From a virus (taxonomy: Duplodnaviria > Caudoviricetes), in IMG/VR virus record IMGVR_UViG_3300008110_000203, positions 1 to 58,730 of that record: a stretch of 58,730 bases of DNA. One strand, given 5' to 3'. Below, in pieces: positions 6,620 through 51,768 of the stretch (the first letter of the stretch is position 1; each line of letters begins with the position of its first letter). A model generated the notes under the pieces. It saw only the letters and a program-made list of their open reading frames with translations, was not told where the DNA came from and did no database searches. Both the position numbers and the translations under genes were made by a program.

Positions 6620-6654
6620 CGACTATAGTGGTGCGTAAAAACCAAAGGTGAGGA

Positions 6655-10804: not shown

Positions 10805-10805
10805 T

Positions 10806-24289: not shown

Positions 24290-26808
24290 ATCCCACCATG
24301 TTGGCTGAACCGGGACAGCAGATTGCGAACCAACGCCATGCCAGCCGGTGTGATTAGGTCAGGAGCCTGCTTCGGGTCCAGTGGCGAGGCGGTTTCGGTG
24401 ACACCCAGAAGATCTGCGTAGTCGTACCCGCCTCTGGCCGGGAGATTTCGGTAGCCCATTTGCGGGTCGTACACTTTCGGGATTTCTTGGTTGAAGTACT
24501 GAAACGCCGCAGACATCGCAGGGCTGCTGGTGGATGTTGTTGCGGCGAAGTTCTCGAACCCTCCGGCAAAGGCTTCCTCTCGGTCTCGAGTCCACGGATT
24601 GCCCGGCATAAACCGGCGGCGCAGGTAGTGGGACATCTCGTGCGGTGCTGTTGACGGATCCGGACCAAAAGCCATCAACGTTGTCCCGTCCGGACTGAAT
24701 TGAATAGCTCCTCGAGGTGTTTGGTCGGCTAGCGGCGATTGCGTGTAGAGGTTCGGGTCGGGTCCCTCTGGGTTCAATCCGGCCAACAACCTCGCTATTT
24801 TTTCGTTTGGTGTGTTGGCGGGCGCCATACCTATTCTGTTAAGCAACGACGGGTCGTGGACTGCGGCCTCAATAAGCCCCGGAAACCCATCGCCTTGGGC
24901 TGGGAGCATCTCCACTCTTAGCCTATAGTTTACTTTATTTGCGTCACTGAGCCTTCTGGCCTCAGCAAACGCAGCCGATCGTTCGCTCCCGACGGGGAGA
25001 GAGTTTGCGTGTTCGTACAGGTCTCCAATACGTTTTTGTGTGTCTGTAAATAGATAGTCCGGAGCGTGTTGCCCCGCCCACGACGTGTGGCCTACCGGAG
25101 GTTGTATAGAAAACAAGTGTATTTGGGGGTCGCCCCCTCCGTACTCGTTGGCGTACACCTTGGCGCCTGAAATAGCTCTTAACAATTCTTCGTCGTTTCT
25201 GGCTGCGTACCCGTACAGCCCATTTCCCAGAGGGCGTAGTCCTCCGGGCTCCCCGGATCCAAGAAAGCTTTTGTCAAAATCTCGCCAGTTACTACCCCCA
25301 TGAACAAACACCCAATTTTTATCATCCATCAGAGTGTTCTGTGGATTTAATGGAGACTGGTACAGCATCCGCGGGTCGGCATCTTCCGGACCCACCCCAG
25401 CCGCCGCCAAACGGTCTCGAACGCCTTCAGAAGACATCATCTCCGTGCGCGGGTTTTTCGCCAAAACAAAGTCGCCGAATTGCAGCACCTCGTCGGCGTC
25501 AACAACACGCGACCGGTGGTCGTCCGACAGGTAGAAGTAGGAGTGCCGCTCGGGGTTGTACCCAACCTGCCGCCATTGCGGATCCCGCATCTTCGCTTGA
25601 ATCTCGCTAAGCACTTGATCCGGGGACGTGAGAGCCCCCACCCGACCCGCAACCACGGCCCACGAGTTTTTACTGGCTTCTCCCGCCGCAACTGCTGCCG
25701 GGCCCCGAGGCCCGGCAGAAAACTGGTACTCTTCCAAAGGCGATTTTACGTTTGTTTTGTTTCCTCCGGCCAGCCCAAAACTTACTTTGCCTGTTTCGTC
25801 CGGCAGGAGCTGAACAGCTCGGGCGTAGTTGAGCCCGTCTTTCCCGTGCAACGTGACGACAGGGTTATTCCGCGCGTACTCATTGATGTCCAGACGGGCC
25901 CCTACCGGCATACCAACAACCGGGGAAAGGTCATCCAAACCCTTTGCCGCAATCCGCTCCGGGCTGTTGGAAAAACCCGGAGGCATGCGGTCGCGCAAGG
26001 TTGTCAGGTGGTCTTCTGACCGAGGAACTGGCGCCCTCCCCGACTCACCCATCAAGCGGTTGTACTGGTCTTGGTCGATTCTGCCGGCAAACAGGTCGTT
26101 CGCCTCGTCCTGCATCAATCGTGGTCGAGGTATTGCCGGCTGTTGCAGGGGCGATTCCATCAACTGATCAGCAACCGCGGAAGTCGCTGCGATCCCGGCA
26201 ACAGCGCCCTCCAGCCGCTTAGCGGTTACGCCGCCGTAGACCAAGTTTGGGTCTTTCTTCTGCGCAATCGTGGCGGCATCGAGCAGTGTCATTGTGTGCT
26301 CGCCAGACTCGCCGTACGCCTCTACCATCTCTCGACCAAGGCGTTGCCGTTCCGGGTTTCGTTGCAAGGCCTCCAAAGCTGCGTTGTGGGTTGTGGCCTT
26401 TTTCCCCGCACGAAATAGCTTGCCGAGTTTTAGCGCAGAAACCACGTTCAGCGGGTCCGTCAGGATCTCCACCCCAAACCCAGCCAGGTCGCGAAGGCCT
26501 TCCATCGGATCGTCGAGCCAGCCAGCCATGCCGGTCTCTTTGTTCGGGGCTGTAACACCCCAGTGATCCAGAACATCTCTCCCCGTCACTCGGTTGTCGG
26601 CGCTGAACGGAGACGCAAATTGGTCGAGTGGGTTTCTCCCGACGAGCAGGTCTCTGACGGAGCTGCCGGGCAGGTCGAAGGCGTTCCCCACGGCGTCCAG
26701 CACCGGGCTGTAATACTCGCTGCCGGGGGCTCCGGCCACAGCACCTGCAGTAAGTCCGTACGTCGCGTACGGTGCGTACCTACCAGCTCGTTGGAGAAAC
26801 GTTCGCAT
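24286..26808 (-). CDS. multidomain polyvalent-type virion protein with an ART-like domain and an HExxH metallopeptidase-like domain
   Basis: HGGSNWRDFDKSFLGSGE...LGNGLY...AKVYA segment; STAPHEMSH...EEAFA segment; N-terminal domain shared with the 1838-aa protein. Confidence 0.6.
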   Translation of the reverse strand: MRTFLQRAGRYAPYATYGLTAGAVAGAPGSEYYSPVLDAVGNAFDLPGSSVRDLLVGRNPLDQFASPFSADNRVTGRDVLDHWGVTAPNKETGMAGWLDDPMEGLRDLAGFGVEILTDPLNVVSALKLGKLFRAGKKATTHNAALEALQRNPERQRLGREMVEAYGESGEHTMTLLDAATIAQKKDPNLVYGGVTAKRLEGAVAGIAATSAVADQLMESPLQQPAIPRPRLMQDEANDLFAGRIDQDQYNRLMGESGRAPVPRSEDHLTTLRDRMPPGFSNSPERIAAKGLDDLSPVVGMPVGARLDINEYARNNPVVTLHGKDGLNYARAVQLLPDETGKVSFGLAGGNKTNVKSPLEEYQFSAGPRGPAAVAAGEASKNSWAVVAGRVGALTSPDQVLSEIQAKMRDPQWRQVGYNPERHSYFYLSDDHRSRVVDADEVLQFGDFVLAKNPRTEMMSSEGVRDRLAAAGVGPEDADPRMLYQSPLNPQNTLMDDKNWVFVHGGSNWRDFDKSFLGSGEPGGLRPLGNGLYGYAARNDEELLRAISGAKVYANEYGGGDPQIHLFSIQPPVGHTSWAGQHAPDYLFTDTQKRIGDLYEHANSLPVGSERSAAFAEARRLSDANKVNYRLRVEMLPAQGDGFPGLIEAAVHDPSLLNRIGMAPANTPNEKIARLLAGLNPEGPDPNLYTQSPLADQTPRGAIQFSPDGTTLMAFGPDPSTAPHEMSHYLRRRFMPGNPWTRDREEAFAGGFENFAATTSTSSPAMSAAFQYFNQEIPKVYDPQMGYRNLPARGGYDYADLLGVTETASPLDPKQAPDLITPAGMALVRNLLSRFSQHGGI

Positions 26809-30533: not shown

Positions 30534-30779
30534 ATGAGCGAACAATTACTGACACCAAAAGAAGTCGTGACGCTGATCAAACAACAGTTTGGTGTTAGCG
30601 TAGACGTATCTACTGTTCGGAAGTGGTGTACCCGCGGTATTGGCGGGGCGAATTCAAAGTGTTGCCTGCCTCGCGTGCATGTCGGCGGGCGGGTATTTGT
30701 GAAGCTCAGTCGGCTGCAGAATTGGCTGCAGCGGAAACAACTCCGATCACTGTTGGATGGTTCCGAAACATCTCTGTGA
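30534..30779 (+). CDS. DUF1580-like/excisionase-type winged HTH protein
   Basis: MSEQLLTPKEVV...VSTVRKWCTRG...LPRVHVGGRVFV, a MerR/Xis-like pattern; convergent with and overlapping the recombinase. Confidence 0.7.
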   Translation: MSEQLLTPKEVVTLIKQQFGVSVDVSTVRKWCTRGIGGANSKCCLPRVHVGGRVFVKLSRLQNWLQRKQLRSLLDGSETSL

Positions 30780-32211
30780 GGCTCAGAGATCGCTGCTCTC
30801 TCGGAAGCTGCTGGTGGATGTCCATGAATTCTTTGAACCTTGCAGCGTTCCTCATGAAACGGTTCGGGTTCACGGGAGAAGCTACGTGCGTGTGACTATC
30901 AACTACGGCAGCAACGCGTTTGCATAACGCGGTACCCTTCCGCCGCAAGGCTCGAGCGTACTCCGCCGCATTTGTGTACGGCATGGCGATCAGAGGGGGT
31001 AGGCCTTTCTCATGCAGCGCCTGATTGCAAACGCACGATACGCACGCCGGCACGTTCCGGTATTGTTTGTACGTCAGGTACACTTTGAGCCACAAATCAG
31101 ACATTTCCTGCGGCGTGAACACATCTTGAAACACGTAATGCTTCTGGCGGAGTGGGATCCTGTTCGACAACGCTCTCGGTAACCGTTGTTGCAACAGGTT
31201 CTCATTTGTCGCAAGAGCAATTGCTGCCGCATGCTTCGTGGCTCGGCTAGTTTCCTCGGACTCGAGCTGGGCGAATGCGGAGAGCATGCCCATCAGCAGC
31301 CTGCCAAACAGGTCGTCAGTGCGGATCCCGCTTTCCGCGATCGCGAGAATGGCACCTTTGGCGTGAATGGCGTCGATTTGGTTGGCCGCGTCTTTCAGAG
31401 ACCGAAACAGTCTGTCCGGCCTCAGAGCAACGACGACATCACCGGGTTGCAGGATCTGCAGCATTTGCCCACCAGCGGGCCGGTTCTGCAGAGGGGTTTT
31501 CCACGCGCTGACCCCTTCGTCCACAAACTCCAGGGCGTCTGGGTACTTCTGCCGCAAAATCTGTAGTTGAGTGCTTGCGGACTGATCGTCCGTGGACACT
31601 CTGGCATACAAAAACGTCCGCCCTTTGGCGACCGCTGCCGGGGTCGCAGCCATTATCCGAAGAGTTTCAACCGCAGAAAGTTGGGACGGAGGTACTGGCG
31701 GCCTGGTCGCTGGTCGGCGATCTTGTGGGGTCGCGGTTGCATCCTTCTTTCGCGCCTTTGCCTCCCGTATTCGAGCAGAAATAAGCTCGCTTTTGAGCTG
31801 AGCAACTGCCGCCATGCAGTACACCAGACACCGACCGTTGGCCGAGTTGAAACTCAGCGAAGGGTAGTCCACAAAAGTGACGTGGACTCCGGCCTCGACC
31901 CACCGTTCGAGGATGCTGCACGCATCAGAGACACGGCGAAATAGCCGTGTCAGGCTCGTGACGACTACGGTGTCACCCGGTCGAACCGAGTTTGCCAGCA
32001 ACAAAGCGCCGGGTCTTGTCTCAAAAGACTTTTTGTACGCGCTCCTGCCCCCGTCGATTATCACGCCGGGGCTGTCGCAATTCGAGGCCGAAGCCAAAAC
32101 AAGGTTTGTCGATGTGCAGTAGTCCCGACAGGACTTCACCTGACCCTCGAGACTCTGCCCGTTCAGCATTTGCTCAGGCGTTGAGACGCGTGCGTAAATG
32201 TACGCCACCAT
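30706..32211 (-). CDS. serine recombinase with two tandem resolvase catalytic domains
   Basis: YIYARVST...RPG...GDTVVV..LTRLFR and FLYARVST...RPAG...GDVVVA..PDRLFRS...FAQLESE; AGGAG SD. Confidence 0.9.
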   Translation of the reverse strand: MVAYIYARVSTPEQMLNGQSLEGQVKSCRDYCTSTNLVLASASNCDSPGVIIDGGRSAYKKSFETRPGALLLANSVRPGDTVVVTSLTRLFRRVSDACSILERWVEAGVHVTFVDYPSLSFNSANGRCLVYCMAAVAQLKSELISARIREAKARKKDATATPQDRRPATRPPVPPSQLSAVETLRIMAATPAAVAKGRTFLYARVSTDDQSASTQLQILRQKYPDALEFVDEGVSAWKTPLQNRPAGGQMLQILQPGDVVVALRPDRLFRSLKDAANQIDAIHAKGAILAIAESGIRTDDLFGRLLMGMLSAFAQLESEETSRATKHAAAIALATNENLLQQRLPRALSNRIPLRQKHYVFQDVFTPQEMSDLWLKVYLTYKQYRNVPACVSCVCNQALHEKGLPPLIAMPYTNAAEYARALRRKGTALCKRVAAVVDSHTHVASPVNPNRFMRNAARFKEFMDIHQQLPREQRSLSLTEMFRNHPTVIGVVSAAANSAAD

Positions 32212-38143: not shown

Positions 38144-38319
38144 GTGTTTACCGGTATTGCCCTGTGTTTACCGGTATTTCCTTGTGTTTACCGGTATTTC
38201 CCTGTGTTTACCGGTATTGCCCTGTGTTTACCGGTATTTCCTTGTGTTTACCGGTATTTCCCTGTGTTTACCGGTATTGCCCTGTGTTTACCGGTATTGC
38301 CCTGTGTTTACCGGTATTT
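38144..38319. repeat. tandem 20-bp repeat GTGTTTACCGGTATTKCCYT, 8 full copies plus 1 partial
   Basis: Directly visible; palindromic core TACCGGTA; 60-bp higher-order period. Confidence 0.97.
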
Positions 38320-39296: not shown

Positions 39297-39815
39297 TTAA
39301 CCCTTTATGGATTTGAGATTGGAAAGATAGTCCGCATTTCTGCGGGCGATATGCTGCCGGTGTCCGGCCGTCTCTGTTGGTTCCGGCTTTTTGCCGTTGC
39401 CTAGTTCTGTCAGGTCTTTGTTCGTGTTTTCTTTGGGTGTCGTCTTCCTCCTAGCTAGTTGGTGAAGGGTGGCGTAAAGCCGTTCAATGCTGCATAAGCT
39501 TTTCCGGGTCTTAAAACACCTAAGGAAAGTTTGCGCAACTAGTGCTGTTTGCTGGTAGTCGTCTCGAGGGCAGATTTTCCGGGCAGTGGAGTAGACTTCC
39601 CCCCAGTCAATCCAGTCTGCTGGCAGAATCGGCAATTCGCCAGATAGTTCCAAGTCTAAAAGTCTGCCGATATGTTCCCCCTTTCGTAAGTCAGGTCGGT
39701 TGCAGTTCCCCGGTCTGCCACATTCATCGACCGTCGGCAGGGGAAGTCTACACTCTTTCCCCCTCCCACACAACGGAAAGCAAAACATTTCCCGAAACAG
39801 AGAAAAAACGTTCAC
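39297..39815 (-). CDS. hypothetical protein
   Basis: 172-aa ORF adjacent to the downstream ORF. Confidence 0.45.
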   Translation of the reverse strand: MNVFSLFREMFCFPLCGRGKECRLPLPTVDECGRPGNCNRPDLRKGEHIGRLLDLELSGELPILPADWIDWGEVYSTARKICPRDDYQQTALVAQTFLRCFKTRKSLCSIERLYATLHQLARRKTTPKENTNKDLTELGNGKKPEPTETAGHRQHIARRNADYLSNLKSIKG

Positions 39816-39899: not shown

Positions 39900-39988
39900 G
39901 CCCAGAAAGCGGGACGCCTAAGAGGCCGGTCGGAAAGCGGATGCGTAACGCGTCGCCCAGAAAGCGGATGCGTAACGCAGAAAGCAGG
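39900..39988 (+). promoter_or_regulatory. array leader with four CRGAAAGCRG boxes
   Basis: Boxes at about 39903, 39931, 39958 and 39978; GAAAGCGGATGCGTAACGC occurs twice. Confidence 0.6.
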
Positions 39989-40058
39989 TCGTTTGCAGTA
40001 TGGTCCCGGCGACGCTGTGTCGCCGGGTTTTTGTGTTCCAGTAGGGAGCTTTGTTATG
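39973..40058 (+). repeat. cassette repeat A1 (box, hairpin with U-tract, SD hairpin, start codon)
   Basis: TAACGCAGAAAGCAGGTC...GCAGT...CCCGGCGACGCTGTGTCGCCGGGTTTTT...TTCC-N5-GGAG...ATG. Confidence 0.95.
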
Positions 40059-40640
40059 GGAACAGATGATTCTGGACGGCTTTTGGGTTGTGCGGTCGAA
40101 ATGGCCCTCCTCAAGCGCGATCAAAAGGACCGGTTGTCATGGTCGGCGGGGTATACCAACCGCGTTACGGTCATCGGCCCCAACAACCTCGTTACAGGAG
40201 GCTACGACACCTTTTACACGAGCAGCGAGCAGATGTTGCGCCGCAACCTCGGGCCGCTTTCGGAACGGTTGTCGGCTGCGGAAGTTGACATGTGCGTGTT
40301 GCCCCTGTGTGATAGGAAACGCCACCTGCTTACTGCCGACGGGTTTCCCGGGAAACACGTACTGAGATCCCTGCATCGTGAACCTGGGGCCGATGCGAGT
40401 TTTTGCGCAGCCGATTTGGTGGACACCACTGACTCTGCGGTGATGGACAACTTCTGGCTTAACGCCCGGAACAAACTCCGCGAGCGTTACAAGTGGTCGC
40501 AGGGCCAGTTCACAATGATTGACGCACTGGACGGGGTGTACGACGAGCCGACTAAGGGCACCCCTTATGTGTGCGTTTTTAGGAGTAGCGGGCGTTTGTC
40601 TACCCTCGTTCGGTCTAAATCCATTCTGATCATCAAGTGA
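40056..40640 (+). CDS. cassette gene, hypothetical (paralogue of the next gene)
   Basis: ATG at the end of A1; MGTDDSG... Confidence 0.8.
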   Translation: MGTDDSGRLLGCAVEMALLKRDQKDRLSWSAGYTNRVTVIGPNNLVTGGYDTFYTSSEQMLRRNLGPLSERLSAAEVDMCVLPLCDRKRHLLTADGFPGKHVLRSLHREPGADASFCAADLVDTTDSAVMDNFWLNARNKLRERYKWSQGQFTMIDALDGVYDEPTKGTPYVCVFRSSGRLSTLVRSKSILIIK

Positions 40641-40648
40641 CTCGTGGC

Positions 40649-40706
40649 CGTGTAAGGCGAGCGTGTGATAGACAGCCGCTGCGGCGGCTGTCGTTCGTGT
40701 GCTTTC
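40649..40706 (+). repeat. cassette repeat B1
   Basis: 58 bp identical to 41562-41619; hairpin GACAGCCGC-TGCG-GCGGCTGTC. Confidence 0.95.
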
Positions 40707-40736
40707 CGTTTTTGTGTTCCAGTAGGGAGCTTTGTT

Positions 40737-41264
40737 ATGTCCGAGGAAACTGAGGCGTGCCCGTTTACGGAGCGATGGGGCGTCAACCGGATCAAAATGG
40801 CCCGTAAGGGGTATACGCTCATCGTCACCATGATCGGGCCTAAAAGCCTGATCAAAGACGGGGTAGATTCAATCTACGTGAAGAACGGTAGCGATATGAT
40901 GGACTGGCTTAAGGACTACCACCCTACCGTCCACCACAGCCCGGCGGCGCGTGAGGCACAGGGGGTGACCGTCTCTTACGAACACCTCGACGCCTTTACC
41001 GGCCCGAACGTTCGGCCCATCGACGACGCGATCCTGATCTGGCGTCTGGTGGATTTCAACAACCCAGACGCTAAGGGTAATCCGTGGGTAACCATGCAGA
41101 ACGCCTTGAGGGAGCGTTTTGGGTGGACCAACGGCCACTTTACGTCGATCGAGTCTCTTACAGGGGTTGACTACAGCGCCCCTGAAGACGCCGTGTATGG
41201 GGTCAGGTTCCGTAAGGAGCACATCAAGGGTGCGGAAACGAAAAACCTGCTGATCCTCTGCTAA
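40737..41264 (+). CDS. cassette gene, hypothetical (paralogue of the previous gene)
   Basis: MSEETEAC...; its TAA stop is the first codon of repeat A2. Confidence 0.8.
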   Translation: MSEETEACPFTERWGVNRIKMARKGYTLIVTMIGPKSLIKDGVDSIYVKNGSDMMDWLKDYHPTVHHSPAAREAQGVTVSYEHLDAFTGPNVRPIDDAILIWRLVDFNNPDAKGNPWVTMQNALRERFGWTNGHFTSIESLTGVDYSAPEDAVYGVRFRKEHIKGAETKNLLILC

Positions 41265-41347
41265 CGCGGAAAGCAGGTCTTCGGCAGTTCTTCCCGGCGA
41301 CGCTGTGTCGCCGGGTTTTTTGCGGTTCCATTATGGAGTTTGTCATG
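41262..41347 (+). repeat. cassette repeat A2
   Basis: Same consensus as A1. Confidence 0.95.
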
Positions 41348-41557
41348 GCAACGTTGACCCCAGCTTACGGACGTGATTACACGAGGGCAGACGCAGCCCG
41401 CGAGGCATTTCTCGCGGGTAAAGATTTCATCTTTAACGAGGTCGGCAGTCGCTGGGATGGAAAGCCCTGTTCGATCCGTGACTTCAAGGCGGACGAAACG
41501 CCCAGCGTGACGATCCGCTACAACCACCTCAGATCGTCGATCGTCGTCGATCTGTGA
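41345..41557 (+). CDS. cassette gene, small phage protein (TLTPAYGRDY...GKDF)
   Basis: ATG at the end of A2. Confidence 0.8.
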   Translation: MATLTPAYGRDYTRADAAREAFLAGKDFIFNEVGSRWDGKPCSIRDFKADETPSVTIRYNHLRSSIVVDL

Positions 41558-41561
41558 CGTG

Positions 41562-41619
41562 CGTGTAAGGCGAGCGTGTGATAGACAGCCGCTGCGGCGG
41601 CTGTCGTTCGTGTGCTTTC
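41562..41619 (+). repeat. cassette repeat B2
   Basis: Identical to B1; followed by TTCCACTAAGGAG and ATG. Confidence 0.95.
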
Positions 41620-41639
41620 TTTCCACTAAGGAGAAACCA

Positions 41640-42242
41640 ATGTGTGAGTACTGGGCTGATAAAGACGGGTGCGTGACGTACTGCGACGGCGATGCTGGTG
41701 CTGACGTGGCCAACCACGAGGGTGTGGCCCGCCAGCACGCGGCGCGTAACGTGGCGGATGCGTTGCAGTCTTTGAGCGGCGACGAACCTCTGGTGGACGC
41801 CATCAACCGTGTGTTTACGGACCACATCAATCACGATGGGGTTCTGGATTGTACCGCTTTGCGTTGCGATTTAGGAAACCTCGACGAATTCGCTGGCGAT
41901 GAAACCCCGGTTGAGGCGATCACGCGCCTTACGGGGCTGCCTGAGCTGGAGGTTCGGTTTGCGCTGCAGGCCGAACCCACTGACGAGGACGTGAGGCTCT
42001 ACGCGATGCGTGTGTGGGGTTGGCACCGCATCGTGTGCAAAGGCTCGTTTTATACGATTGAGAGCTGGAAAGTGTCCCGCTCTCTTATCAAGATGATGTA
42101 CTACGTGATCGGCGAGATTGAGGACGAATGCGGCGTTACCTCGCCTACGTGGACGTGGTACGTGAGGGGTAACGGGAGGCGGTTTGAGATCGCCAACGCG
42201 GACATGGAGGCTGGGATTATCCCCCGCGCTGAGGTGTCCTAA
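41640..42242 (+). CDS. cassette gene, hypothetical
   Basis: MCEYWAD...; its stop starts A3. Confidence 0.8.
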   Translation: MCEYWADKDGCVTYCDGDAGADVANHEGVARQHAARNVADALQSLSGDEPLVDAINRVFTDHINHDGVLDCTALRCDLGNLDEFAGDETPVEAITRLTGLPELEVRFALQAEPTDEDVRLYAMRVWGWHRIVCKGSFYTIESWKVSRSLIKMMYYVIGEIEDECGVTSPTWTWYVRGNGRRFEIANADMEAGIIPRAEVS

Positions 42243-42324
42243 CGCGGAAAGCAGGTTGTTTGCAGTATGTCCCGGCGGCACTGTGTCGCCGGGTTTTTGT
42301 GATTCCATTATGGAGTTTGTTATG
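42240..42324 (+). repeat. cassette repeat A3
   Basis: Same consensus; stem variant CCCGGCGGCA. Confidence 0.95.
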
Positions 42325-42618
42325 GGTCTGGGAAAAAAACCGCTTCCTAAGGTGGAATACGTCACCGGAGACTACCGGTTGGTTTCAAACGATGCCACGC
42401 GTGTTGTGGGCAGGCGGGGGCAGGATGAGATGGGCTATGGCCTTGCCATCACCACGGGCATCGTGCTGCAGTTCGCCGAAACGAAGCGAAAGCATCATGT
42501 GTATTGCACGTGCTTTAGCAACATCGGGTCGCTGTGGATCAAGGTGAAGGGCAAACGCCTTTACTTGGGCACCGTGTTTAGCAGTGACCTCAAAGAAACC
42601 TTTTATGCGGGAGACTGA
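42322..42618 (+). CDS. cassette gene, hypothetical
   Basis: MGLGKKPLP...VYCTCFSNIGSLWI. Confidence 0.8.
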   Translation: MGLGKKPLPKVEYVTGDYRLVSNDATRVVGRRGQDEMGYGLAITTGIVLQFAETKRKHHVYCTCFSNIGSLWIKVKGKRLYLGTVFSSDLKETFYAGD

Positions 42619-42619
42619 T

Positions 42620-42892
42620 GTGTCCGAGAAGCAAGAGATTACGCTGCACTTCCCACACCTCCCGCACTACGTGAGGGCAGTAGCGACAATCGTCAAAGAT
42701 GAATTCGAGCGGGAGGGTGGGGGCGTATCGGTAACGGTATACTCAGACATACACGTCCCTAAAGAGACCAAGATGGACATGGGCTGGTCATACCACTTTT
42801 TCCGCGATCGCCGTAACGAGTTCATGTCTGATGTTGCGGGCTTTATGATCAAGATTTATGGTCTGACGCCCATGCCTACGCGGTACTGGTGA
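42620..42892 (+). CDS. cassette gene, hypothetical
   Basis: GTG start after GGGAG; its TGA starts A4. Confidence 0.7.
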   Translation: MSEKQEITLHFPHLPHYVRAVATIVKDEFEREGGGVSVTVYSDIHVPKETKMDMGWSYHFFRDRRNEFMSDVAGFMIKIYGLTPMPTRYW

Positions 42893-42975
42893 CGCGGAAA
42901 GCAGGTCGTTTGCAGTCTCTCCCGGCGACGTTGTGTCGCCGGGTTTTTTGCGGTTCCATTATGGAGTTTGTCATG
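42890..42975 (+). repeat. cassette repeat A4
   Basis: Same consensus; 3' half identical to A2. Confidence 0.95.
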
Positions 42976-43278
42976 GATCTCAATAACGTAGAGTTCCCCG
43001 AGCGGTTCGTTAGGACAGCGGGTGAGTGGTACGGCGGGCAGGGCTGCATCCTGTACGCGGTGAGTTCTACGGGCGGTCTCACCCGTGGCAGCATCAGGCC
43101 GGACTTGTGCGATGATGACGGGAACTACACGCCCGCTACGGATGAGGCGTGGATCAGATACTTGTGGGACGAGCTGGACATCACGCCGAGTTCTGCTGTA
43201 CTGGAAGTGCGCTCGGTGCGGGCGTTACGTGAGTGCCACAGGGTCCGCCATTCAGGAGTCGGGGATTCCGCTGTGTGA
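42973..43278 (+). CDS. cassette gene, possibly chimeric or frameshifted
   Basis: MDLNNVEFP...; an alternative frame to 43345 encodes a Zn-ribbon-like tail. Confidence 0.6.
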   Translation: MDLNNVEFPERFVRTAGEWYGGQGCILYAVSSTGGLTRGSIRPDLCDDDGNYTPATDEAWIRYLWDELDITPSSAVLEVRSVRALRECHRVRHSGVGDSAV

Positions 43279-43322
43279 ATGCGCTGAAACCTCGTATGAC
43301 ATGGTGTACGTTGGCGTCAGCG

Positions 43323-43410
43323 TAAAGCGGAAAGCAGGTCGGTAGCAGTCTTTCCCGGCGACGTCGTGTCGCCGGGTTTTTGTTTTGTTCTACTAAGGAG
43401 CTTCGTTGTG
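43323..43410 (+). repeat. cassette repeat A5
   Basis: TAAAGCGGAAAGCAGGTCGGTAGCAGT...hairpin...TTCTACTAAGGAG...GTG. Confidence 0.93.
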
Positions 43411-43974
43411 GGATCGTACTTGTTTCAAACCTTGTTTGCGATGAACAACCAGGGTACGGTTAAGGAGTTGCTTGAAGGGGCGTGTGACGGGGGTGAAGCC
43501 TCGCACGGACTTGCGAAAGTCGAGATGTGCTACTCAGGAACCCTGTCTTACGAGCACGTAAGGTTCACGGTTGCAGACGGGCACGTCACCTTCCGAGGGA
43601 AGCGTCGTAAGATAGAGCGACAGCCCGGCGGTGAGTTTATCCGCCAGCCCAACGAGAGCATGGACGACTTCTGGGAAAAAGCCCTCAAGTTTGCGAAAGC
43701 GGAATACAAAAAATTTCGGCAGCATGACACGCGACACCCATCTCACACAGCGTCTATGGTCCTGTCGAGCACGGAACGGTTTTTCCCCGAGCTAAAGACG
43801 CACGGGGTGGAGGGGTTTGCCCTCGATGCGGGTGGGCGTGATGGCCTGACATACCTCAACACTGGCGATACGTACCAGAGGACGATCCTGTTCAGGTCAA
43901 AATCAGAGCGTATGTGGCTCGGAAGTTGGGGTGACTTTGTTGAGAGTAACCCGAAGCTGTGCGGTAACGGGTAG
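43408..43974 (+). CDS. cassette gene, hypothetical
   Basis: GTG at the end of A5; C-terminal HGVE...YLNTGDTY...SWGDFVE. Confidence 0.8.
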   Translation: MGSYLFQTLFAMNNQGTVKELLEGACDGGEASHGLAKVEMCYSGTLSYEHVRFTVADGHVTFRGKRRKIERQPGGEFIRQPNESMDDFWEKALKFAKAEYKKFRQHDTRHPSHTASMVLSSTERFFPELKTHGVEGFALDAGGRDGLTYLNTGDTYQRTILFRSKSERMWLGSWGDFVESNPKLCGNG

Positions 43975-43977
43975 CGT

Positions 43978-44067
43978 TTACGCAGAAAGCAGGTCGTTTG
44001 CAGTAGGTTCCCGGCGACGCTGTGTCGCCGGGTTTTTTGTTGTCGTTCCATGAAGGAGTTTGCCATG
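43978..44067 (+). repeat. cassette repeat A6
   Basis: Same consensus; 3' half shared with A8. Confidence 0.95.
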
Positions 44068-44631
44068 TACATGGTTGGTTTCTACGGTCGTCCTATCGGT
44101 TCCGACGGGGTTGTGCGTTGGATCTACACGCACATCAACAACAATCCAGAGAAGTTTGCTGAACGAGACTGCCCTGACGACGATCCGGCGATGCTGGAGA
44201 TTTATTCCAGGTATGAACACATCTCCGGGTTCACGAGCGTTTCTCACGCTCGTTACGTGCTGGTATCCCTCGCGGACGACAAGAAAGTTCTCGAGAAGGT
44301 TGAGCCGTCCGTGATGTTTGTTGTGAACGATGCAGGAGACGGGCGTGCTTGGTCCGAGAGCGACCGCCGGCAGGGCATTCAACCGTTGGACCGCGTCGTA
44401 CGGTGGCCGGCTCGGTACAGCGCCGATAGGCCCCTCGACGCCCGGTTTTGGGTGGCTGTGGTTGTTAGGAGTTTCCTCCCGAACACCCGGATTGACGACG
44501 ACTGGGAGGCCATGCTGCTCGCCCTCGACTACCTGTTTGAGATGCGGGAGAAAGACCCAAAGTTAGACAAAATCTGTGGCCGCTCGGGGTTGCCCGGGTA
44601 CGCCTTGCAACCGATACAGTTGCTCGTCTAA
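44065..44631 (+). CDS. cassette gene, hypothetical
   Basis: MYMVGFYG...; its stop starts A7. Confidence 0.8.
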   Translation: MYMVGFYGRPIGSDGVVRWIYTHINNNPEKFAERDCPDDDPAMLEIYSRYEHISGFTSVSHARYVLVSLADDKKVLEKVEPSVMFVVNDAGDGRAWSESDRRQGIQPLDRVVRWPARYSADRPLDARFWVAVVVRSFLPNTRIDDDWEAMLLALDYLFEMREKDPKLDKICGRSGLPGYALQPIQLLV

Positions 44632-44719
44632 CGCGGAAAGCAGGTCCTCGGCAGTATGTTCCCGGCGACGTTGTGTCGCCGGGTTTTTTGCAATTCCATT
44701 ATGGAGTTCCCTCGCTATG
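44629..44719 (+). repeat. cassette repeat A7
   Basis: Same consensus. Confidence 0.95.
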
Positions 44720-45364
44720 TCAGAACATCTCATCGTAAGTATTGGCAGTGATTATTGTGAGAACCCAGCAGAGTCTGGATGCAACTGGCGGTTGATTAGC
44801 TACAGCACGCGGCACGCCGCTTTCGAGCACCCGGACAAGCTGTTTAATGTCACCCGTGAAAACGGCTGGCTCGTGTTCAACCCCCGCGAACTGGGCTTGC
44901 GACGCCGCCTCGACGTGGGGCTGGCGTTTCACTTGTCCTACTACGAACACGGCCTGTGTAGCTGGTTCCGTAAAGGCAACGGTCGGCCCGGCACAAACTG
45001 TCGGTTCGATGGCGTTACCTACGCCGGCCTGCTGGTGTTCGAGCACGGACCTGCCGCCATCGGCTCTAAGACGTACGCTGAACGAGCGGCGGACGCTGAC
45101 AGGTTCCTCGAGCAGTACACCGACTGGTGTAACGGGAACGGGCTGTCTGTCGATGTCCGCACTAACACCGGCGAATACGTCGATGGGGGTTGCGGCGGGT
45201 ACTACGGCAGCGACTACAAGACCGCGGTCAACGACGCCGTAGGGGTTGTCTCTGACCTGATCGCGCAGGGTATGCCGTGGACTGTGTCCCCGGAGTCTCT
45301 GCACGAGTACGAACTCAATGCAGCCCTCAGGAAATTGTTCCCAACGCAGGAGTACAAGGCATGA
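44717..45364 (+). CDS. cassette gene, hypothetical
   Basis: MSEHLIVS...YTDWCNG...GCGGYYG. Confidence 0.8.
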   Translation: MSEHLIVSIGSDYCENPAESGCNWRLISYSTRHAAFEHPDKLFNVTRENGWLVFNPRELGLRRRLDVGLAFHLSYYEHGLCSWFRKGNGRPGTNCRFDGVTYAGLLVFEHGPAAIGSKTYAERAADADRFLEQYTDWCNGNGLSVDVRTNTGEYVDGGCGGYYGSDYKTAVNDAVGVVSDLIAQGMPWTVSPESLHEYELNAALRKLFPTQEYKA

Positions 45365-45576
45365 TTTCCTTCCGGGTAGGCGAGAAAGTGTGGGTGGGGC
45401 CTAACCGCACGCGGGTTGGAGAGCCCGGCTACTACGGCACCGTGACAGCGGTGCATGCCGCAACGAGCGGGCGGTTTGTGTTTAGTGTCCGGCCAGACGA
45501 CACCCCAGACATTCTGCGACTGGTAAGTCTACACCACCTTAGGGGTATTCCAAAACACGAGGAGAACGAGTCATGA
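45361..45576 (+). CDS. small SH3/KOW-like beta protein
   Basis: MISFRVGEKVWV...GTVTAVH; ATGA coupling. Confidence 0.65.
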   Translation: MISFRVGEKVWVGPNRTRVGEPGYYGTVTAVHAATSGRFVFSVRPDDTPDILRLVSLHHLRGIPKHEENES

Positions 45577-45800
45577 GTGAGCAGCGTAAATCCCCTGCAG
45601 TAGGCGAGCGTGTACGCGTTCGGCCCTACACAGTACCGGGTCATGAACAGCCCGCGTATTCCGGGACTGTGGGTCACGTTCACGGGCCCGATGAGGCGGG
45701 TCGTTACTTGGTAGGTTTGGACCGATGCTCTGGCGATAGGGGGCAGTCGCGGGTGGAGTGGTTGCATTTTATCTCAGGATATGAAGGGCACAGATCATGA
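45573..45800 (+). CDS. small SH3/KOW-like beta protein
   Basis: AVGERVRV...GTVGHVH; GAGGAG SD; ATGA coupling. Confidence 0.65.
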   Translation: MSEQRKSPAVGERVRVRPYTVPGHEQPAYSGTVGHVHGPDEAGRYLVGLDRCSGDRGQSRVEWLHFISGYEGHRS

Positions 45801-46270
45801 ATAGTGAGAAGAAACCCAGCACTGTACGTGTGAAGTGCTACGACGCCGGTGATGGTGTCTTAGACAGGTACGTAGTGTTCTTTTCCGGTAGCACGCGGAG
45901 GTGGTGTTCGAGTTCGGTGGCCATGTCTTCGAACCCTCACCACCCGCAAGGGTTTTGGTGTTCAGCAGGGAACTCAACTATCGGCAAACACCTCGGAAAA
46001 CGGGTCGCGTTTAGTGAATTGCCGGAGGCGTGTCAAACAGCGGTATGCCAGTACCTCGTACTCAATGTCGCAAGCACCGCGGTTCTTGCCCCCCACGTCA
46101 TTGACGCCTGCGGGATCAAACGATTCTGCGTGGGGCGCATAGACCAGCGTCCAGTGTACGGAAACAAACGCCGGCGATGGTTCGCTACCGAAGATCAGGC
46201 GGAACAGTTCTTGGGCACTCTCCCGGAGGCCGACGTGGCTGCCGGGCTGTACTATCTCGAGAGGAGGTGA
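45797..46270 (+). CDS. hypothetical protein
   Basis: YDAG...DRYVV...PHHPQGF...HLGKRVAFSELP. Confidence 0.75.
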   Translation: MNSEKKPSTVRVKCYDAGDGVLDRYVVFFSGSTRRWCSSSVAMSSNPHHPQGFWCSAGNSTIGKHLGKRVAFSELPEACQTAVCQYLVLNVASTAVLAPHVIDACGIKRFCVGRIDQRPVYGNKRRRWFATEDQAEQFLGTLPEADVAAGLYYLERR

Positions 46271-46274
46271 TTCT

Positions 46275-46595
46275 GTGGAAGGTCTTGAGTGTTACGTAAT
46301 TCAGATGGACTTTAAGGCCTTGAAAGGCCTTGAGGATAGCCTCAAACCGGTGTTTTTCAAACGGTTCAAGGGCGAAGACATTGACAACGGTCCGACAGAA
46401 CTCGGCGACATAACGCAAGCACACCGCTTTGCGACGGCTGGCAATGCGGTGTCAACAGTGCGTCGATTGTTGAACAACCCGTCAGTGTGCAATGACACGC
46501 TGGACTCTTACGAGATCTCTATTCGCAAGCTGGTGTGTGGGGTTGCAATGTCCGCACGTTTGTCGGACGACGGTCGAGTTTCACTCTTTGGATGA
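46275..46595 (+). CDS. hypothetical protein
   Basis: GTG after GGAGG. Confidence 0.65.
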   Translation: MEGLECYVIQMDFKALKGLEDSLKPVFFKRFKGEDIDNGPTELGDITQAHRFATAGNAVSTVRRLLNNPSVCNDTLDSYEISIRKLVCGVAMSARLSDDGRVSLFG

Positions 46596-46601
46596 AAGGC
46601 G

Positions 46602-46835
46602 GTGCGTGTGAGAACTTTTGACGAAGAGTTGTTTGACGAGCGTGTAAATGAGGCCGAACATGAAGCACGCGAACTGTTCGAAGCGATCACTACGCTGGCG
46701 GACCCCGAGTGTTACGCGAAAGAGGACAGCCGGCTGGGTCAAATCGCAGAAGTTATGGGCGGGTTGGTGAGTTTGACGACCGCGGTTCGCAAACTCGTCC
46801 GAGCCGGACGCATAACGCAGAAAGCAGGTCGGTAG
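46602..46835 (+). CDS. hypothetical acidic protein (reads into repeat A8)
   Basis: 77 aa; ends ITQKAGR inside the repeat. Confidence 0.6.
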   Translation: MRVRTFDEELFDERVNEAEHEARELFEAITTLADPECYAKEDSRLGQIAEVMGGLVSLTTAVRKLVRAGRITQKAGR

Positions 46836-46902
46836 CAGTATGTTCCCGGCGACGCTGTGTCGCCGGGTTTTTTGTTGTCGTTCCATGAAGGAGTTTGTTA
46901 TG
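46813..46902 (+). repeat. cassette repeat A8
   Basis: 5' half like A5, 3' half like A6. Confidence 0.95.
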
Positions 46903-47514
46903 TCAGATCACCACGCAATCACACTCACCCCTCCCATGCTGGCCCACGCAAAGGCCTACGCTTGGGCCCACCATGTCAGCACCATTCTCGTGCCCGATAT
47001 GCGGACCGTTTGTGAGAATTTCCTCGGCAAGAAGGTGCTCAAGGTGGATGGCACGTTCGGTAAGGCGTTTACCGGCATGGTAAACGATGCGGTGAGGGAC
47101 AACGTGACTAACCTCCCGCATGTCGATAAGGAGCGACCGGACGACCCGAACACTACCCGGTTTGTCCGGGCACTGCTGCGGTTCTGGAGGTCGGGTGCTG
47201 GCTGTGGTTCAATATACCTGCACGTGACAGCCACAGCCCACGCCGGCGGTGAAGGCGGTCGGTTCGACCACAATGAGTACAACATCTGCGAGACGCGGCT
47301 CGGGGCCGTTACGCATCTTACGCTCTCTGAGATTGAGTGCAATGTGTCTCCTCTTAACAACCCAGCGAGGGAGGGGCGGCTGGCCACGCCGCTGCTCGAG
47401 AAGCAGTTGGCCGACTACAACGCCGCAGTCGCGGAGTTTGAGGCGATGCGGGAGCGTGTTGATGGGCTGCGTCACGACATCAAGCACCTGCTTTTTGGCA
47501 ACAGCAAGTGGTGA
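46900..47514 (+). CDS. cassette gene, hypothetical
   Basis: MSDHHAIT... Confidence 0.8.
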   Translation: MSDHHAITLTPPMLAHAKAYAWAHHVSTILVPDMRTVCENFLGKKVLKVDGTFGKAFTGMVNDAVRDNVTNLPHVDKERPDDPNTTRFVRALLRFWRSGAGCGSIYLHVTATAHAGGEGGRFDHNEYNICETRLGAVTHLTLSEIECNVSPLNNPAREGRLATPLLEKQLADYNAAVAEFEAMRERVDGLRHDIKHLLFGNSKW

Positions 47515-47543
47515 TGCGGGTGGTGATGCGGGTGGTTTATGTG

Positions 47544-47602
47544 CCCGGCGACACGGTGTCGCCGGGTTTTTTGTTGGTGTTCCAATAAGGAAACGCGTCG
47601 TG
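47544..47602 (+). repeat. partial cassette repeat A9 (hairpin and SD part only)
   Basis: CCCGGCGACACGGTGTCGCCGGGTTTTTT...TTCCAATAAGGAA...GTG; preceded by a tandem 12-mer. Confidence 0.9.
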
Positions 47603-47911
47603 GGAAAACAAACGTTCTTTAACGTGGTCGATGAGCCACATGTTGGGGTCCGAATTGTGGTTGTCGGATACAACTCATGGGGTGCGGGCGGTACTCGAAG
47701 TGAGGCCCTGAAAAACTGGCGGAGGAACGCCCCTCAGGGCGCTCGGGTTGACAAGACCGCCACATACGTAGCCATCGACGAGCGGGTGCTCACCCGCGGC
47801 GACATGCCCGACAACAACTGGGCGGACGTAGATGACCGCAACGCCGCGTGGATCAGCATTGATGACATGGGTCGGGTAAAGATCCGCCACTGCATCGTGA
47901 TCAGGCATTGA
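47600..47911 (+). CDS. cassette gene, hypothetical
   Basis: GTG at the end of A9; NSWGAGGTRSEALKN. Confidence 0.7.
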   Translation: MGKQTFFNVVDEPHVGVRIVVVGYNSWGAGGTRSEALKNWRRNAPQGARVDKTATYVAIDERVLTRGDMPDNNWADVDDRNAAWISIDDMGRVKIRHCIVIRH

Positions 47912-47936
47912 CCGGGTTCAACTGTTTTTGTAGAAT
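47908..47936 (+). promoter_or_regulatory. sigma70-like promoter for csrA
   Basis: TTGACC-17 bp-TAGAAT, followed by hairpin GTGCCGGC/GCCGGCAC (47944-47965) and AAGGAG. Confidence 0.7.
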
Positions 47937-47988
47937 GTCCAATGTGCCGGCGTGTTTGCCGGCACGATTCTTTACGAAGGAGAATGTC

Positions 47989-48171
47989 ATGTTAGTGTTG
48001 AAGCGCAAGCGGGGCGAAAAGATCAGCATCGTGGTTAAGGTTCCGGGGTCCGACACCCCGATCACGATAACGTTGCTGACCCACCTGATAAGCAAAGGCA
48101 GCGTGTCGTTGGGCTTTGAGGCACCTCGCAAATCGGTAACGATCATTCGCAACGAGATCGCGAAGCAGTAA
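47989..48171 (+). CDS. csrA: CsrA/RsmA-family RNA-binding protein homologue
   Basis: MLVLKRKRGEKISI...ITITLL...VSLGFEAP..VTIIRNEI matches the CsrA pattern MLxLxR..GE.I.I...V.LG..AP....I.R.E. Confidence 0.85.
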   Translation: MLVLKRKRGEKISIVVKVPGSDTPITITLLTHLISKGSVSLGFEAPRKSVTIIRNEIAKQ

Positions 48172-48214
48172 ACTCGCGACGTGTTGATTCTTTCACCCAT
48201 TATGGAGAGCTATT

Positions 48215-48997
48215 ATGGCTGGCGTAGTGTTCTATGAAGGTCCCTCAGCGATCGACGGCAAGCCTATCGTTGCGATAGCGACCACCGGCACTCGCAACAA
48301 GAAGACCGGACCCTTGGTCCAGACGTGGATTCTGAGAGCGGATGTGAGCCCGGTGAATGCCATCAACACTGGTGCTGACAGTAGCGTGTGCGGTTCCTGC
48401 CCTTTGCGGGGGATCATCGCCAACAGTACCCGGGTCAAGAGGAAGAAAGTCAACCGGTTCAGGTCCTGCTATGTGCGGGTTGGTCAGGCACCGAACCAAA
48501 TCTGGAAGGCTTACCGACGCGGTGCTTACCCGACACTCGACGCCCTGTCACCGGCCATGAGGCGGGCTCTGAGGAACAGCCTGCTTCGGCGTGGGTCTTA
48601 CGGTGACCCAGTCGCCGTACCTCGGGCAGCGTGGGACGCCTTGGCGGAGTTGGTCAAACCCGGCAAGCACCCGGGTTACACGCACCAGTGGGACAGTCCG
48701 GCAGCCGCCGGCTGGCAGACGGACCTGATGGCCAGCGTGCAGACGCTGGATGAGCGGGCCCGAGCTGTCGCCGCAGGGTGGCGTACGTTCCGCATCGTCA
48801 AGAGCGTGGACGAGCTGCAGGACGGCGAGATCCTGTGTCCGGCCAGCCCTGAGGCGGGCAGCACAAAGACCTGCGAACAGTGCGGTGCGTGCAACGGTCG
48901 GCGTGACAGCCGAGACCTCCGGCACTCGGTCGCTATCCCCGGGCACGGGTCGCGGTTTGCCGTGCTGCCCAGTCTGCTGCGACTGTTCGACAATTGA
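48215..48997 (+). CDS. Cys-rich phage protein (GP88-like, putative Fe-S or metal binding)
   Basis: NKKTG, CGSCP, CYV, R.GSYGD, YTHQW, CPA...TCEQCGAC; RBS CCATTATGGAG matches the repeat A tail. Confidence 0.65.
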   Translation: MAGVVFYEGPSAIDGKPIVAIATTGTRNKKTGPLVQTWILRADVSPVNAINTGADSSVCGSCPLRGIIANSTRVKRKKVNRFRSCYVRVGQAPNQIWKAYRRGAYPTLDALSPAMRRALRNSLLRRGSYGDPVAVPRAAWDALAELVKPGKHPGYTHQWDSPAAAGWQTDLMASVQTLDERARAVAAGWRTFRIVKSVDELQDGEILCPASPEAGSTKTCEQCGACNGRRDSRDLRHSVAIPGHGSRFAVLPSLLRLFDN

Positions 48998-49010: not shown

Positions 49011-49038
49011 GGCGGGGGCGAATGCCCCCGCCTTTCTT
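49011..49038 (+). terminator. intergenic hairpin with T-rich tail
   Basis: GGCGGGGGC-GAAT-GCCCCCGCC-TTTCTT. Confidence 0.7.
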
Positions 49039-51708: not shown

Positions 51709-51768
51709 CACACAGCCCCGCTGCACAGTGCGGCGGGTGTGTTTTTAATCGCTTTGGGGGTCGTGACG

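Follow-up and report, generated by a model that had tools for sequence, protein, structure and literature searches.

What is the function of near-identical repeats that fill the spaces between neighboring genes in a phage operon? We addressed this question for an array on the + strand of virus record IMGVR_UViG_3300008110_000203 (Duplodnaviria; Caudoviricetes), a sequence of 58,730 bases (54–62% G+C, estimated 89% complete) that was analyzed over its whole length and is referred to here as the window. An earlier sequence-only reading described these repeats, here called family A, as delimiting a shuffling array of gene cassettes, each with its own expression-control unit and recombination handle, in a layout that no established system matches. 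We consider it probable, though well short of certain, that the family A repeats form a homogenised set of control cassettes placed between the cistrons of an early rightward operon, in an uncultured phage that is itself probably of Planctomycetota, and that they also act as homology points for gene gain and loss.

Anatomy of the family A units

Sequence reading and a repeat finder both recover the repeats first described: eight full units of approximately 86–93 nt, starting at 39973, 41262, 42240, 42890, 43323, 43978, 44629/44630 and 46813, and one hairpin-only unit at 47514–47602. A full unit consists of four parts. The first, which we call the box, reads TAACGCRGAAAGCAGGTC, four free bases and GCAGT. 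A free spacer of 4–5 nt connects it to a hairpin composed of CCCGGCGAC, a loop and GTCGCCGGG, directly followed by T5-6. The last part contains 5–13 free bases, TTCC-N5-GGAG (the putative Shine-Dalgarno (SD) sequence and its upstream partner), a further 6–10 bases, and ATG or GTG. As originally read, the start codon of the next gene closes every unit (9/9), and the stop codon of the upstream gene opens four of them (TAA in A2, A3 and A7; TGA in A4).

The units are easily distinguished from background. The hairpin pattern CCCGGCGAC-N4-TGTCGCCGGG has 18 matches in the window, corresponding to nine sites on both strands, where 0.08 are expected. The box pattern with up to three mismatches has 29 matches against 11.3 expected, and the eight matches with zero or one mismatch are the eight units. 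A covariance model built from 13 units of two lineages identifies on the + strand of the window only the eight units (88–110 bits) and the partial copy (51 bits); its other rows in the window score weakly (E 0.018–0.96) and come from reading these palindromic hairpins on the reverse strand. No Rfam family reaches its gathering score anywhere in the window, and the best sub-threshold match, anti-hemB (21.5 vs 49.5 bits, E 0.3), is at chance level.

The second lineage comes from pattern scans, which found one viral contig (L007, hereafter G001; 57.6 kb) and metagenome contigs of two kinds. L036, L044 and L045 are strains 95.6–99.8% identical to the window, while L038/L041, L046/L047 and L040 (overlap 1151–3302) are 98–99.9% identical to G001. 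G001 is collinear with the window, with 65–75% nucleotide identity in conserved genes, and contains four full and two hairpin-only units. Among viral contigs, the degenerate box and hairpin patterns occur in more than one copy only in L007 (1/33 loci; 1/1 loci).

The hairpin stem is 9–10 bp long, G+C and perfect, with a loop of 3–5 nt. All nine units score as terminator-like, with 10–11 pairs, eight of them G-C, and a T5-6 tail; the region as a whole contains 41 terminator-like sites compared with 16.4 in shuffles. In a consensus fold of the 13 units from both lineages, all 10 hairpin pairs are kept in every sequence. Changes in the stem affect three pairs (four sequences) and always produce a G.U pair on the + strand, with no pair broken, so the hairpin is selected as sense-strand RNA. 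The SD sequence lies within a weak 3–5-bp hairpin formed with the upstream TTCC (UUCCA/UGGAG in four units), and the G001-type mini-hairpin has one extra base on each side (CCC/GGG). Within a genome, mean unit identity is 0.77 over the whole unit and 0.88 over box and hairpin. With the hairpin paired in 13/13 and the SD and start codon conserved, the units hold up as real control modules that occupy the intergenic space.

The box is the most distinctive part of the unit. GC-GAAAGCAGGT and GCAGT are invariant in 13/13 units, and in the alignment 16+5 positions are invariant or nearly so. In the same 13 units, the four bases between the box halves and the 4–5-nt spacer vary freely. Because the fixed positions are kept while the intervening and following bases change, the alignment shows that the box is a selected site and not simply a trace of recent copying. 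The consensus fold of the 13 units predicts no conserved pairing for the box, and its pattern of conservation is the signature of a selected element that is single-stranded or read by a protein.

Portions of the box also occur outside the units. The core RGAAAGCRGR has 12 matches in the window where 1.05 are expected. Of these, 11 fall on the + strand within 39904–46828, eight within units and three in the leader of the operon (39904, 39932 and 39959), where the copies carry just the 9–10-nt core. The leader of L040 contains four core copies at other spacings. A lone copy of the 3' half of the box stands at 39692; the bases around it resemble the spacer and the start of the 5' arm of the hairpin, and AAGTCAGGTCGG is conserved in L040. 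Given the core copies in the leader and this half-box, the box reads as a composite of two motifs that also stand alone near the operon control region.

The features of the array and its surroundings are as follows, all on the + strand.

39692–39706: lone box 3' half, CAGGTC-N4-GCAGT (exact pattern match), in the divergent intergenic region approximately 280 nt upstream of A1
39904–39968: operon leader, three extra core copies interspersed with GCGTAACGC
39973–40058: unit A1 (93.4 bits), with box, hairpin at 40005–40027, T5, ribosome-binding site (RBS) and the ATG of g1
40056–40640: cargo gene g1, 194 aa, with no counterpart in the G001-type lineage; paralogous to g2
40649–40739: unit B1 (repeat finder), hairpin GACAGCCGC-TGCG-GCGGCTGTC and an RBS part 100% identical to that of A1 (32 nt)
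40737–41264: cargo gene g2, 175 aa
41262–41347: unit A2 (98.5 bits); TAA is the g2 stop
41345–41557: cargo gene g3, 70 aa; its G001-type counterpart is the first gene after the leader
41562–41642: unit B2 (repeat finder); TTCC-N5-GGAG exact
41640–42242: cargo gene g4, 200 aa; 50% amino acid identity in the G001 type
42240–42324: unit A3 (94.4 bits); TAA is the g4 stop
42322–42892: cargo genes g5 (98 aa) and g6 (90 aa), window-specific
42890–42975: unit A4; TGA is the g6 stop
42973–43278: cargo gene g7, 101 aa
43323–43410: unit A5 (87.8 bits), GTG start
43408–43974: cargo gene g8, 188 aa, window-specific
43978–44067: unit A6 (106.4 bits), 94% identical to A8 over 89 nt
44065–44631: cargo gene g9, 188 aa, window-specific in the two-lineage comparison; homologs at 58–80% identity on other public contigs
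44629–44719: unit A7 (91.3 bits); TAA is the g9 stop
44717–46835: g10–g15, six tightly packed genes with no unit between them; G001-type counterparts of g10 (54%) and g15 (39%)
46813–46902: unit A8 (110.3 bits)
46900–47514: cargo gene g16, 204 aa
47514–47602: hairpin-only unit A9 (51 bits), a 12-nt tandem repeat in place of the box; hairpin at 47544–47566, T6, RBS and GTG
47600–47911: g17, 103 aa, conserved (42%) in the G001 type
47908–47936: sigma-70-like promoter TTGACC-17-TAGAAT (10/12 promoter positions)
47943–47966: hairpin following the csrA promoter
47989–48171: CsrA-family gene (csrA), 60 aa

The array is less regular than a simple series of single-gene cassettes: the A3 cassette contains two genes, the A7 cassette contains six genes over 2.1 kb, and open reading frame (ORF) g15 extends 22 nt into the box of A8. 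A second repeat family, B, alternates with family A at the head of the array; its two copies, at 40649 and 41562, are 100% identical over 58 nt, and the B hairpin of L040 differs from that of the window by two compensatory double changes. The cargo genes had been called unrelated unknowns. This is true of most of them, as an all-against-all comparison (E 1e-3) shows no other mutual similarity, but g1 and g2 are paralogs (33% identity, E 8e-13). Profile scans covered the 19 proteins encoded at 40056–48997 (17 array cargo genes, csrA and g19). Only csrA exceeds a Pfam cut-off, with sub-cut-off DUF matches for g6 and g19. Five of these proteins match PHROGs, four of them families of unknown function and one a CsrA-like regulator. 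These matches do not support the anti-host role that the earlier reading proposed for the cargo.

Other families of hairpin, T-run and RBS units punctuate the rest of the rightward operon: family C at 52211, 52680 and 52989, and further examples at 49011–49032 and 51717–51737. Gene g7 has an insertion of 152–153 nt at 43184/43185 in strain L045 and in run X10 (in L045 it is 153 nt, a multiple of three), and loose contig ends fall at the same position in runs X3 and X16.

In principle, an ordinary terminator and RBS region may simply have been duplicated serially, leaving the units as passive by-products with a functionless box and no role in exchange. The units have plainly been copied from one another, g1 and g2 form a paralogous pair, no Rfam family is matched, and backbone gene order is conserved between the lineages. 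We nevertheless regard this explanation as very unlikely. The 16+5 box positions are invariant in 13/13 units across lineages whose genes are 65–75% identical, with the bases between them varying; except for g1 and g2, the flanking genes are dissimilar; the core is repeated in both leaders; and near-identical strains differ by conversion tracts and a unit-bounded indel, described below.

Transcription of the array and candidate factors

A sigma-70 consensus scan identifies no + strand promoter within any unit; the sole row that overlaps one is on the - strand of A3 (42334–42307). G001 conserves both the promoter before csrA (TTGACa-17-TAGAaT) and the hairpin after it, the latter in identical form. 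Because this conserved promoter precedes csrA, the polymerase of the host probably recognises promoters close to consensus, of which the units have none. The description of each unit as an expression-control unit of its own is not supported in so far as it implies a promoter. Two options follow for the array: attenuation in a cascade, for which a factor promoting read-through would be required, or transcription from promoters of a type not recognisable here.

In the explanation we favor, each cassette would supply a strong intrinsic terminator for the gene upstream, and a standard SD and start context for the gene downstream, with the SD half-buried in the weak TTCC/GGAG mini-hairpin. Transcription would enter from the divergent region at approximately 39.65–39.9 kb and be attenuated at each unit. 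The invariant box, presumably single-stranded and placed 4–5 nt before the terminator, is most likely bound by a factor acting in trans, which would control how far the early messages are read through, how stable they are or how well they are translated.

Alternatively, the box, with or without its flanks, may be an unrecognised promoter read by a host extracytoplasmic function (ECF) sigma factor or a phage factor, so that the cassettes are transcribed independently and the terminator insulates each from the gene upstream. This would make them cassettes of the PeSL (promoter-early stem-loop) type known from T4-type phages, in which the stem-loop can separate or overlap the promoter boxes or immediately precede the start site (PMC2839356). 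The invariant 16+5-nt element with its free 4-nt gap resembles a two-part recognition site, and few transcripts would otherwise reach the distal genes past nine terminators if there were no internal promoter. However, the scan that detects the conserved csrA promoter finds none in the units on the + strand, a transcript started after the box would begin with a full terminator hairpin and its U-tract, and the leader copies hold just the 9–10-nt core. There is also no match to an RNA polymerase or sigma family among the 46 window proteins scanned. We consider the promoter explanation unlikely.

One candidate for a trans-acting factor was the divergently encoded protein beside the leader (39297–39815, minus strand). 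It has no Pfam match. A word-index search returned six proteins: the protein's own cluster, four close relatives at 80–91% identity and one at 66%. HMMER against 1.84 billion proteins gave five matches, namely the query, two relatives of short length, and two long proteins that match weakly and are unrelated. A weak language-model lead to a Sigma70_r2 cluster (score 0.91, only 100 shared features) is unsupported by HMMER and was dropped. The protein is an orphan.

The box may instead be a DNA site similar to the stoperators of Cluster A mycobacteriophages, at which a phage repressor would block elongation through potentially toxic early genes in the lysogen. As published for stoperators (PMC9283540), the motif is asymmetric, has one orientation relative to transcription, lies in short intergenic spaces, and clusters by the divergent control region. 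A temperate life style is plausible, since the phage encodes a serine recombinase and has a distant relative integrated in a bacterial contig. Weighing on the other side, the motif is restricted to one operon (11/12 matches in a 7-kb stretch of the + strand) and is absent from approximately 40 kb of leftward genes, no repressor or helix-turn-helix protein was identified, and the fixed 4–5-nt gap to an RNA hairpin suits a role at the RNA level at least equally. This explanation, too, we judge to be unlikely.

The gene that directly follows the array suggests a candidate trans-acting factor. Its product matches the CsrA family (Pfam PF02599, E 2e-10, 40.9 bits vs a cut-off of 27; PHROG 9500, 'CsrA-like regulator'), but falls below all three NCBIfam equivalog cut-offs for CsrA and matches no PDB sequence at E 0.01. 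By these profile scores it is a divergent but credible member of the family, and its position beside the array is suggestive. The protein might bind GGA-containing leader repeats and the SD regions (AnGGAG), and so shut off or time early translation. Its gene has its own conserved promoter and in G001 lies inside the array, followed by a full A unit. The window leader contains GGA in AAAGCGGAT twice and in GCGGGAC, and GGAG is present at the SD of every unit. CsrA prefers GGA in hairpin loops. However, eight of the 13 units have no GGA in the box (R = A), GGA at an SD is non-specific, and the protein is divergent by the measures given above. That CsrA is the factor acting at the units is, in our assessment, quite unlikely.

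Four other readings of the box were considered and rejected. A boxB-like CGC-AGAAA-GCG hairpin forms in the leader copies of L040, but neither in the window copies nor in the units. Pairing of the A-rich box half with the U-tract is seen in single folds, but its GCG/GUG partner is unconserved. A resemblance to ops is limited to the variable N4 of two copies, and the spacing is wrong, by inspection, for a sigma-54 -24/-12 promoter.

The box also matches a bacterial gene. Its 16+4 fixed bases are exactly antisense to recO, within codons for ..SALDLLSAS.., in 11 species-level genome records and four metagenome contigs (L048–L058, mostly titled Planctomycetota, and L037, L039, L042 and L043), and two box copies of the G001 lineage match recO at 24/26 bases. 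Termination at eight units would release a common 3' module of approximately 55 nt, composed of single-stranded box, hairpin and U-tail, which has the anatomy of an Hfq-type small RNA from a 3' untranslated region. If so, the array would double as a multi-copy factory of a phage small RNA that silences recombinational repair in the host through recO. We regard this as highly improbable. Among 30 recO loci sampled without bias from 401 genomes of this phylum, one match is exact and the others have 3–9 mismatches at the homologous position; in 10/30 loci the best match to the box lies elsewhere in the locus (7–9 mismatches), including that of G389 (8), a bacterial genome with a related prophage. 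By our own arithmetic approximately two chance matches to the box pattern are expected in the 596-Gb collection, and the leader copies have only the 9–10-nt core. The antisense match is treated here as unexplained and a probable coincidence.

Exchange between units and gene content

The units of one genome resemble each other more than they resemble those of the other genome (mean identity 0.768 within vs 0.709 between genomes, permutation p 0.001). All four window units compared are closer to a paralog than to their positional ortholog, as are three of four G001-type units; the fourth is a tie. Among strains, A8 of both L036 and L045 has the N4 and spacer of window A6, and A4 of L045 has the 3' half (loop, T-run and RBS part) of window A3, with flanks otherwise identical. 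L046 does not contain a 526-bp, one-ORF segment of G001 that is located exactly between two terminator-RBS units of another family, and the join falls within the RBS-ATG stretch.

The gene content of the two lineages was compared by protein similarity, with g3 assigned by a nucleotide match (window 41262–41474 vs L040 707–933, 73% identity). Both lineages have the backbone order g3-g4-g10-g15-g16-g17-csrA-g19. A1-g1-B1-g2 is present only in the window lineage, with g1-B1-g2 bounded by A1 and A2. The four A-delimited cassettes g5–g9 of the window correspond to one two-gene cassette, G_b/G_c, in G001, and both blocks have as their borders the A unit that follows g4 and the one that precedes g10. 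These two differences are bounded on both sides by full A units. In addition, G001 alone has a full A unit between csrA and g19, which places csrA inside its array.

Concerted evolution, patchy exchange among strains, unit-bounded cassette differences and the one-gene indel bear out the proposal that the units serve as recombination handles. PeSL elements are published to behave in the same way: they bound indels between phages phi1 and RB49, and their crossovers map to the interval from the -10 box to the SD or ATG (PMC2839356; PMC4122927). Under the control-cassette explanation, general homologous recombination between units would convert them to one another, because every cassette is bordered, from stop to start, by approximately 90 nt that hardly differ between copies. 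The same process would insert, delete or replace whole genes with their expression intact, by the logic of the PeSL cassettes. As for the term shuffling, gain, loss and replacement of cassettes are seen, but the backbone keeps the same order in both lineages.

The units might also be sites of a site-specific recombination system, as in integrons. Integron attC arrays contain promoterless, unrelated genes that are each flanked by a palindromic repeat and have one orientation. A 9+5+9 palindrome likewise flanks the cassettes here, and the hairpin might be the target of the serine recombinase, a 501-aa protein (30706–32211, - strand) of unusual tandem architecture with two separate resolvase-type catalytic stretches (residues ~4–158 and 190–340). 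We find this extremely unlikely. A T-run follows every hairpin on one strand only, the G.U changes in the stem would be mismatches on the other strand, and the exchange tracts and indel join lie in the box and spacer or in the RBS part, away from the palindrome center. The absence of an integron integrase was read correctly: the tyrosine recombinase family PF00589 has 0 matches in the 89%-complete record, in a search whose control was positive in 14/14 genomes.

Several observations weigh against the explanation we favor. With nine strong terminators and no internal promoter, the distal genes would hardly be expressed without antitermination or an unrecognised promoter type, and no antiterminator was identified. 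Folding energies of whole units are unexceptional compared with shuffles (z -1.6 to -2.3). The gene differences g11–g14 (window only) and x1/x2 (two small genes between g3 and g4 in the G001 type, seen in L040) are not bounded by full A units. Because both lineages, the only two compared, keep the backbone order with no permutation, cassette exchange is slow; L036, L044 and L045 also keep the cassette order over the stretches they cover, together roughly 42.7–52.6 kb of the window. No excised circles or skipped-cassette joints were found at units among contigs that themselves break at units. The four runs mapped on the array consist of assembled contigs that end inside units, none of which bridges one, so termination, read-through and cassette order in other samples are not visible in them.

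The contig joints in these data (39539/39668, 41758/41859, 44252/44458 and 44510/44629) are all located within genes or before the start of the array. Coverage by run X10 nearly vanishes over 44005–44738, which contains cassette g9; no contig joins across this interval, so the gap is not evidence of a g9 deletion. An RNA-library run, X19, has six small contigs on g1, g2, g5/g6, csrA and g19, one of which, on g2, continues through the A2 hairpin to 41336; DNA carry-over is possible for all of these, so they are not evidence of expression.

L040 has two further features. At 963–1358 a small, A+T-richer gene is inserted after the g3 homolog and is flanked by an approximately 58-bp direct duplication of the g3 3' end; it carries an A-type T-run and RBS part with no hairpin. 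Such an arrangement would be the expected remnant of a circle integrated by homologous recombination. Approximately 30 nt before unit gA2 the contig leaves G001, and 3302–11832 is 8.5 kb of unrelated, visibly A+T-richer DNA. This may be a real recombinant or a chimeric assembly and is not used as evidence.

The phage, its probable host and known systems

The leftward-read part of the genome (position 1 to approximately 39,800) encodes the portal protein, large terminase, serine recombinase and a primase-helicase. Rightward genes occupy 40,056 to approximately 53,400, and a helicase, a family A DNA polymerase and a single-stranded DNA-binding protein are encoded beyond them on the minus strand. 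No tRNA genes were found in the 58,730 bases. Neither the array DNA (megablast) nor the portal protein (tblastn) has a match in 50,697 GenBank phage records, and the primase-helicase has no relatives among the viral contigs searched.

A portal homolog is present in one of 401 genomes sampled from the phylum of G002, which is titled Planctomycetota. In this genome (G389; E 5e-93, 29% identity), approximately 29 kb is collinear with window 1.5–28.8 kb. Based on this one distant relative, and without an out-group control, the host phylum is probably Planctomycetota. The prophage-like region of G389 (contig C22, approximately 190–219 kb, L092–L093) lies inside a 351-kb contig and is the sole relative of the virion module found outside metagenomic contigs; it contains no repeat array. 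More distant phages share the g19 protein at approximately 40% identity (17 relatives in one search, one of them the G001 record, and 15 in another), and no dispersed repeat array is present in the five loci examined from them. The array itself is at least partly present in 20 runs from 16 studies, with at least half of the sampled words found in 17 runs. All but three small-share rows among the 20 runs are labeled as lake water, freshwater or fungus metagenomes.

Two additional repeats occur in the leftward part. A 20-nt unit, GTGTTTACCGGTATTGCCCT, is tandemly repeated 8.8 times (94% matches) at 38144–38318, where it separates the primase-helicase side from the divergent control region; the layout is iteron-like and may mark a replication origin. 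A 96-nt stretch is 77% identical between 6254–6349, in an 1838-aa ORF, and 26452–26547, in an 841-aa ORF, so these two large virion-region proteins appear to have a common module.

To our knowledge, almost no gene-regulation parts are available for Planctomycetota, and the units, which combine a terminator and an RBS, could serve as such genetic parts. The invariant box offers a well-defined starting point in the search for a new regulator that acts in trans on termination, stability or translation. The uniformity of the units also lets conversion tracts and unit-bounded indels be read from metagenomic strains, which makes the array a clean natural system for measuring gene turnover driven by intergenic homology in the early regions of phages.

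The claim that no established system matches this layout was too strong, since two have a closely similar one: the PeSL cassettes (Arbiol et al. 2010, PMC2839356; Comeau et al. 2014, PMC4122927) and the extended start-associated sequences (ESAS) of mycobacteriophages (Pope et al. 2011, PMC3203893). PeSL elements are composites of approximately 100 nt that begin at the upstream stop codon, contain a stem-loop terminator and an SD, and end at the ATG; they mediate indels such as those seen here (PMC2839356). Like family A, they are concentrated among small unknown genes, with indels and replacements between relatives bounded by the motifs (PMC2839356, PMC4122927), and their crossovers fall in the part proximal to SD and ATG (PMC2839356). 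The stem-loop terminator or attenuator that defines PeSL is present here by sequence (9/9 terminator-like, pairing 13/13). Motif-bounded indels are partly present: g1-B1-g2, g5–g9 and the L046/G001 segment are so bounded, and two differences are not bounded by A units. Unlike PeSL, the units have no sigma-70-like -35/-10 promoter on the + strand, contain an extra invariant box upstream of the terminator that is repeated in the leader, and have much higher copy-to-copy identity (0.77 whole unit, 0.88 box and hairpin). The genome also differs from those of the PeSL phages in that it is 58.7 kb and has no portal match in the GenBank phage records. PeSL mini-circles have no demonstrated counterpart in these data, which are contigs alone, breaking at units.

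The start-associated sequences (SAS) and ESAS of Cluster K mycobacteriophages are similar to family A in being asymmetric conserved motifs with an SD a few bases before the start codon (PMC3203893). ESAS have one orientation, occupy only the non-structural half of the genome, and sometimes include the upstream stop codon (PMC3203893). In approximately half of their sites, a conserved RBS motif is immediately preceded by an inverted repeat whose spacer varies (PMC3203893). This repeat is an imperfect 17 bp with a 4–13-bp spacer (PMC3203893), whereas the hairpin here is 9–10 bp and perfect, with a 3–5-nt loop and a U-tract, and constitutes a terminator. The 13-bp SAS consensus GGGATAGGAGCCC, found 3–7 bp before the start (PMC3203893), is replaced here by TTCC-N5-GGAG. 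The best-conserved part of family A is the box upstream of the hairpin and not the SD motif, and the sequences are unrelated. The Cluster A stoperators are also short asymmetric intergenic sites, present by the early promoter as well, with an orientation that follows transcription; however, they are distributed genome-wide and bound by a known repressor (PMC9283540), in contrast to the one operon here (11/12 core matches). Compared with integron attC arrays, family A has no integron integrase and no attI, a perfect terminator hairpin with a U-tract, and exchange tracts that are off-center.

Family A is thus a real and functional-looking variant of the modular regulatory cassettes represented by PeSL and ESAS, and not a new kind of system. 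New here are the invariant box with its leader copies, the lack of a recognisable promoter, the unusually clear concerted evolution, and the phage lineage and probable host phylum. The idea of the mobile regulatory cassette is extended beyond T4-type coliphages and mycobacteriophages.

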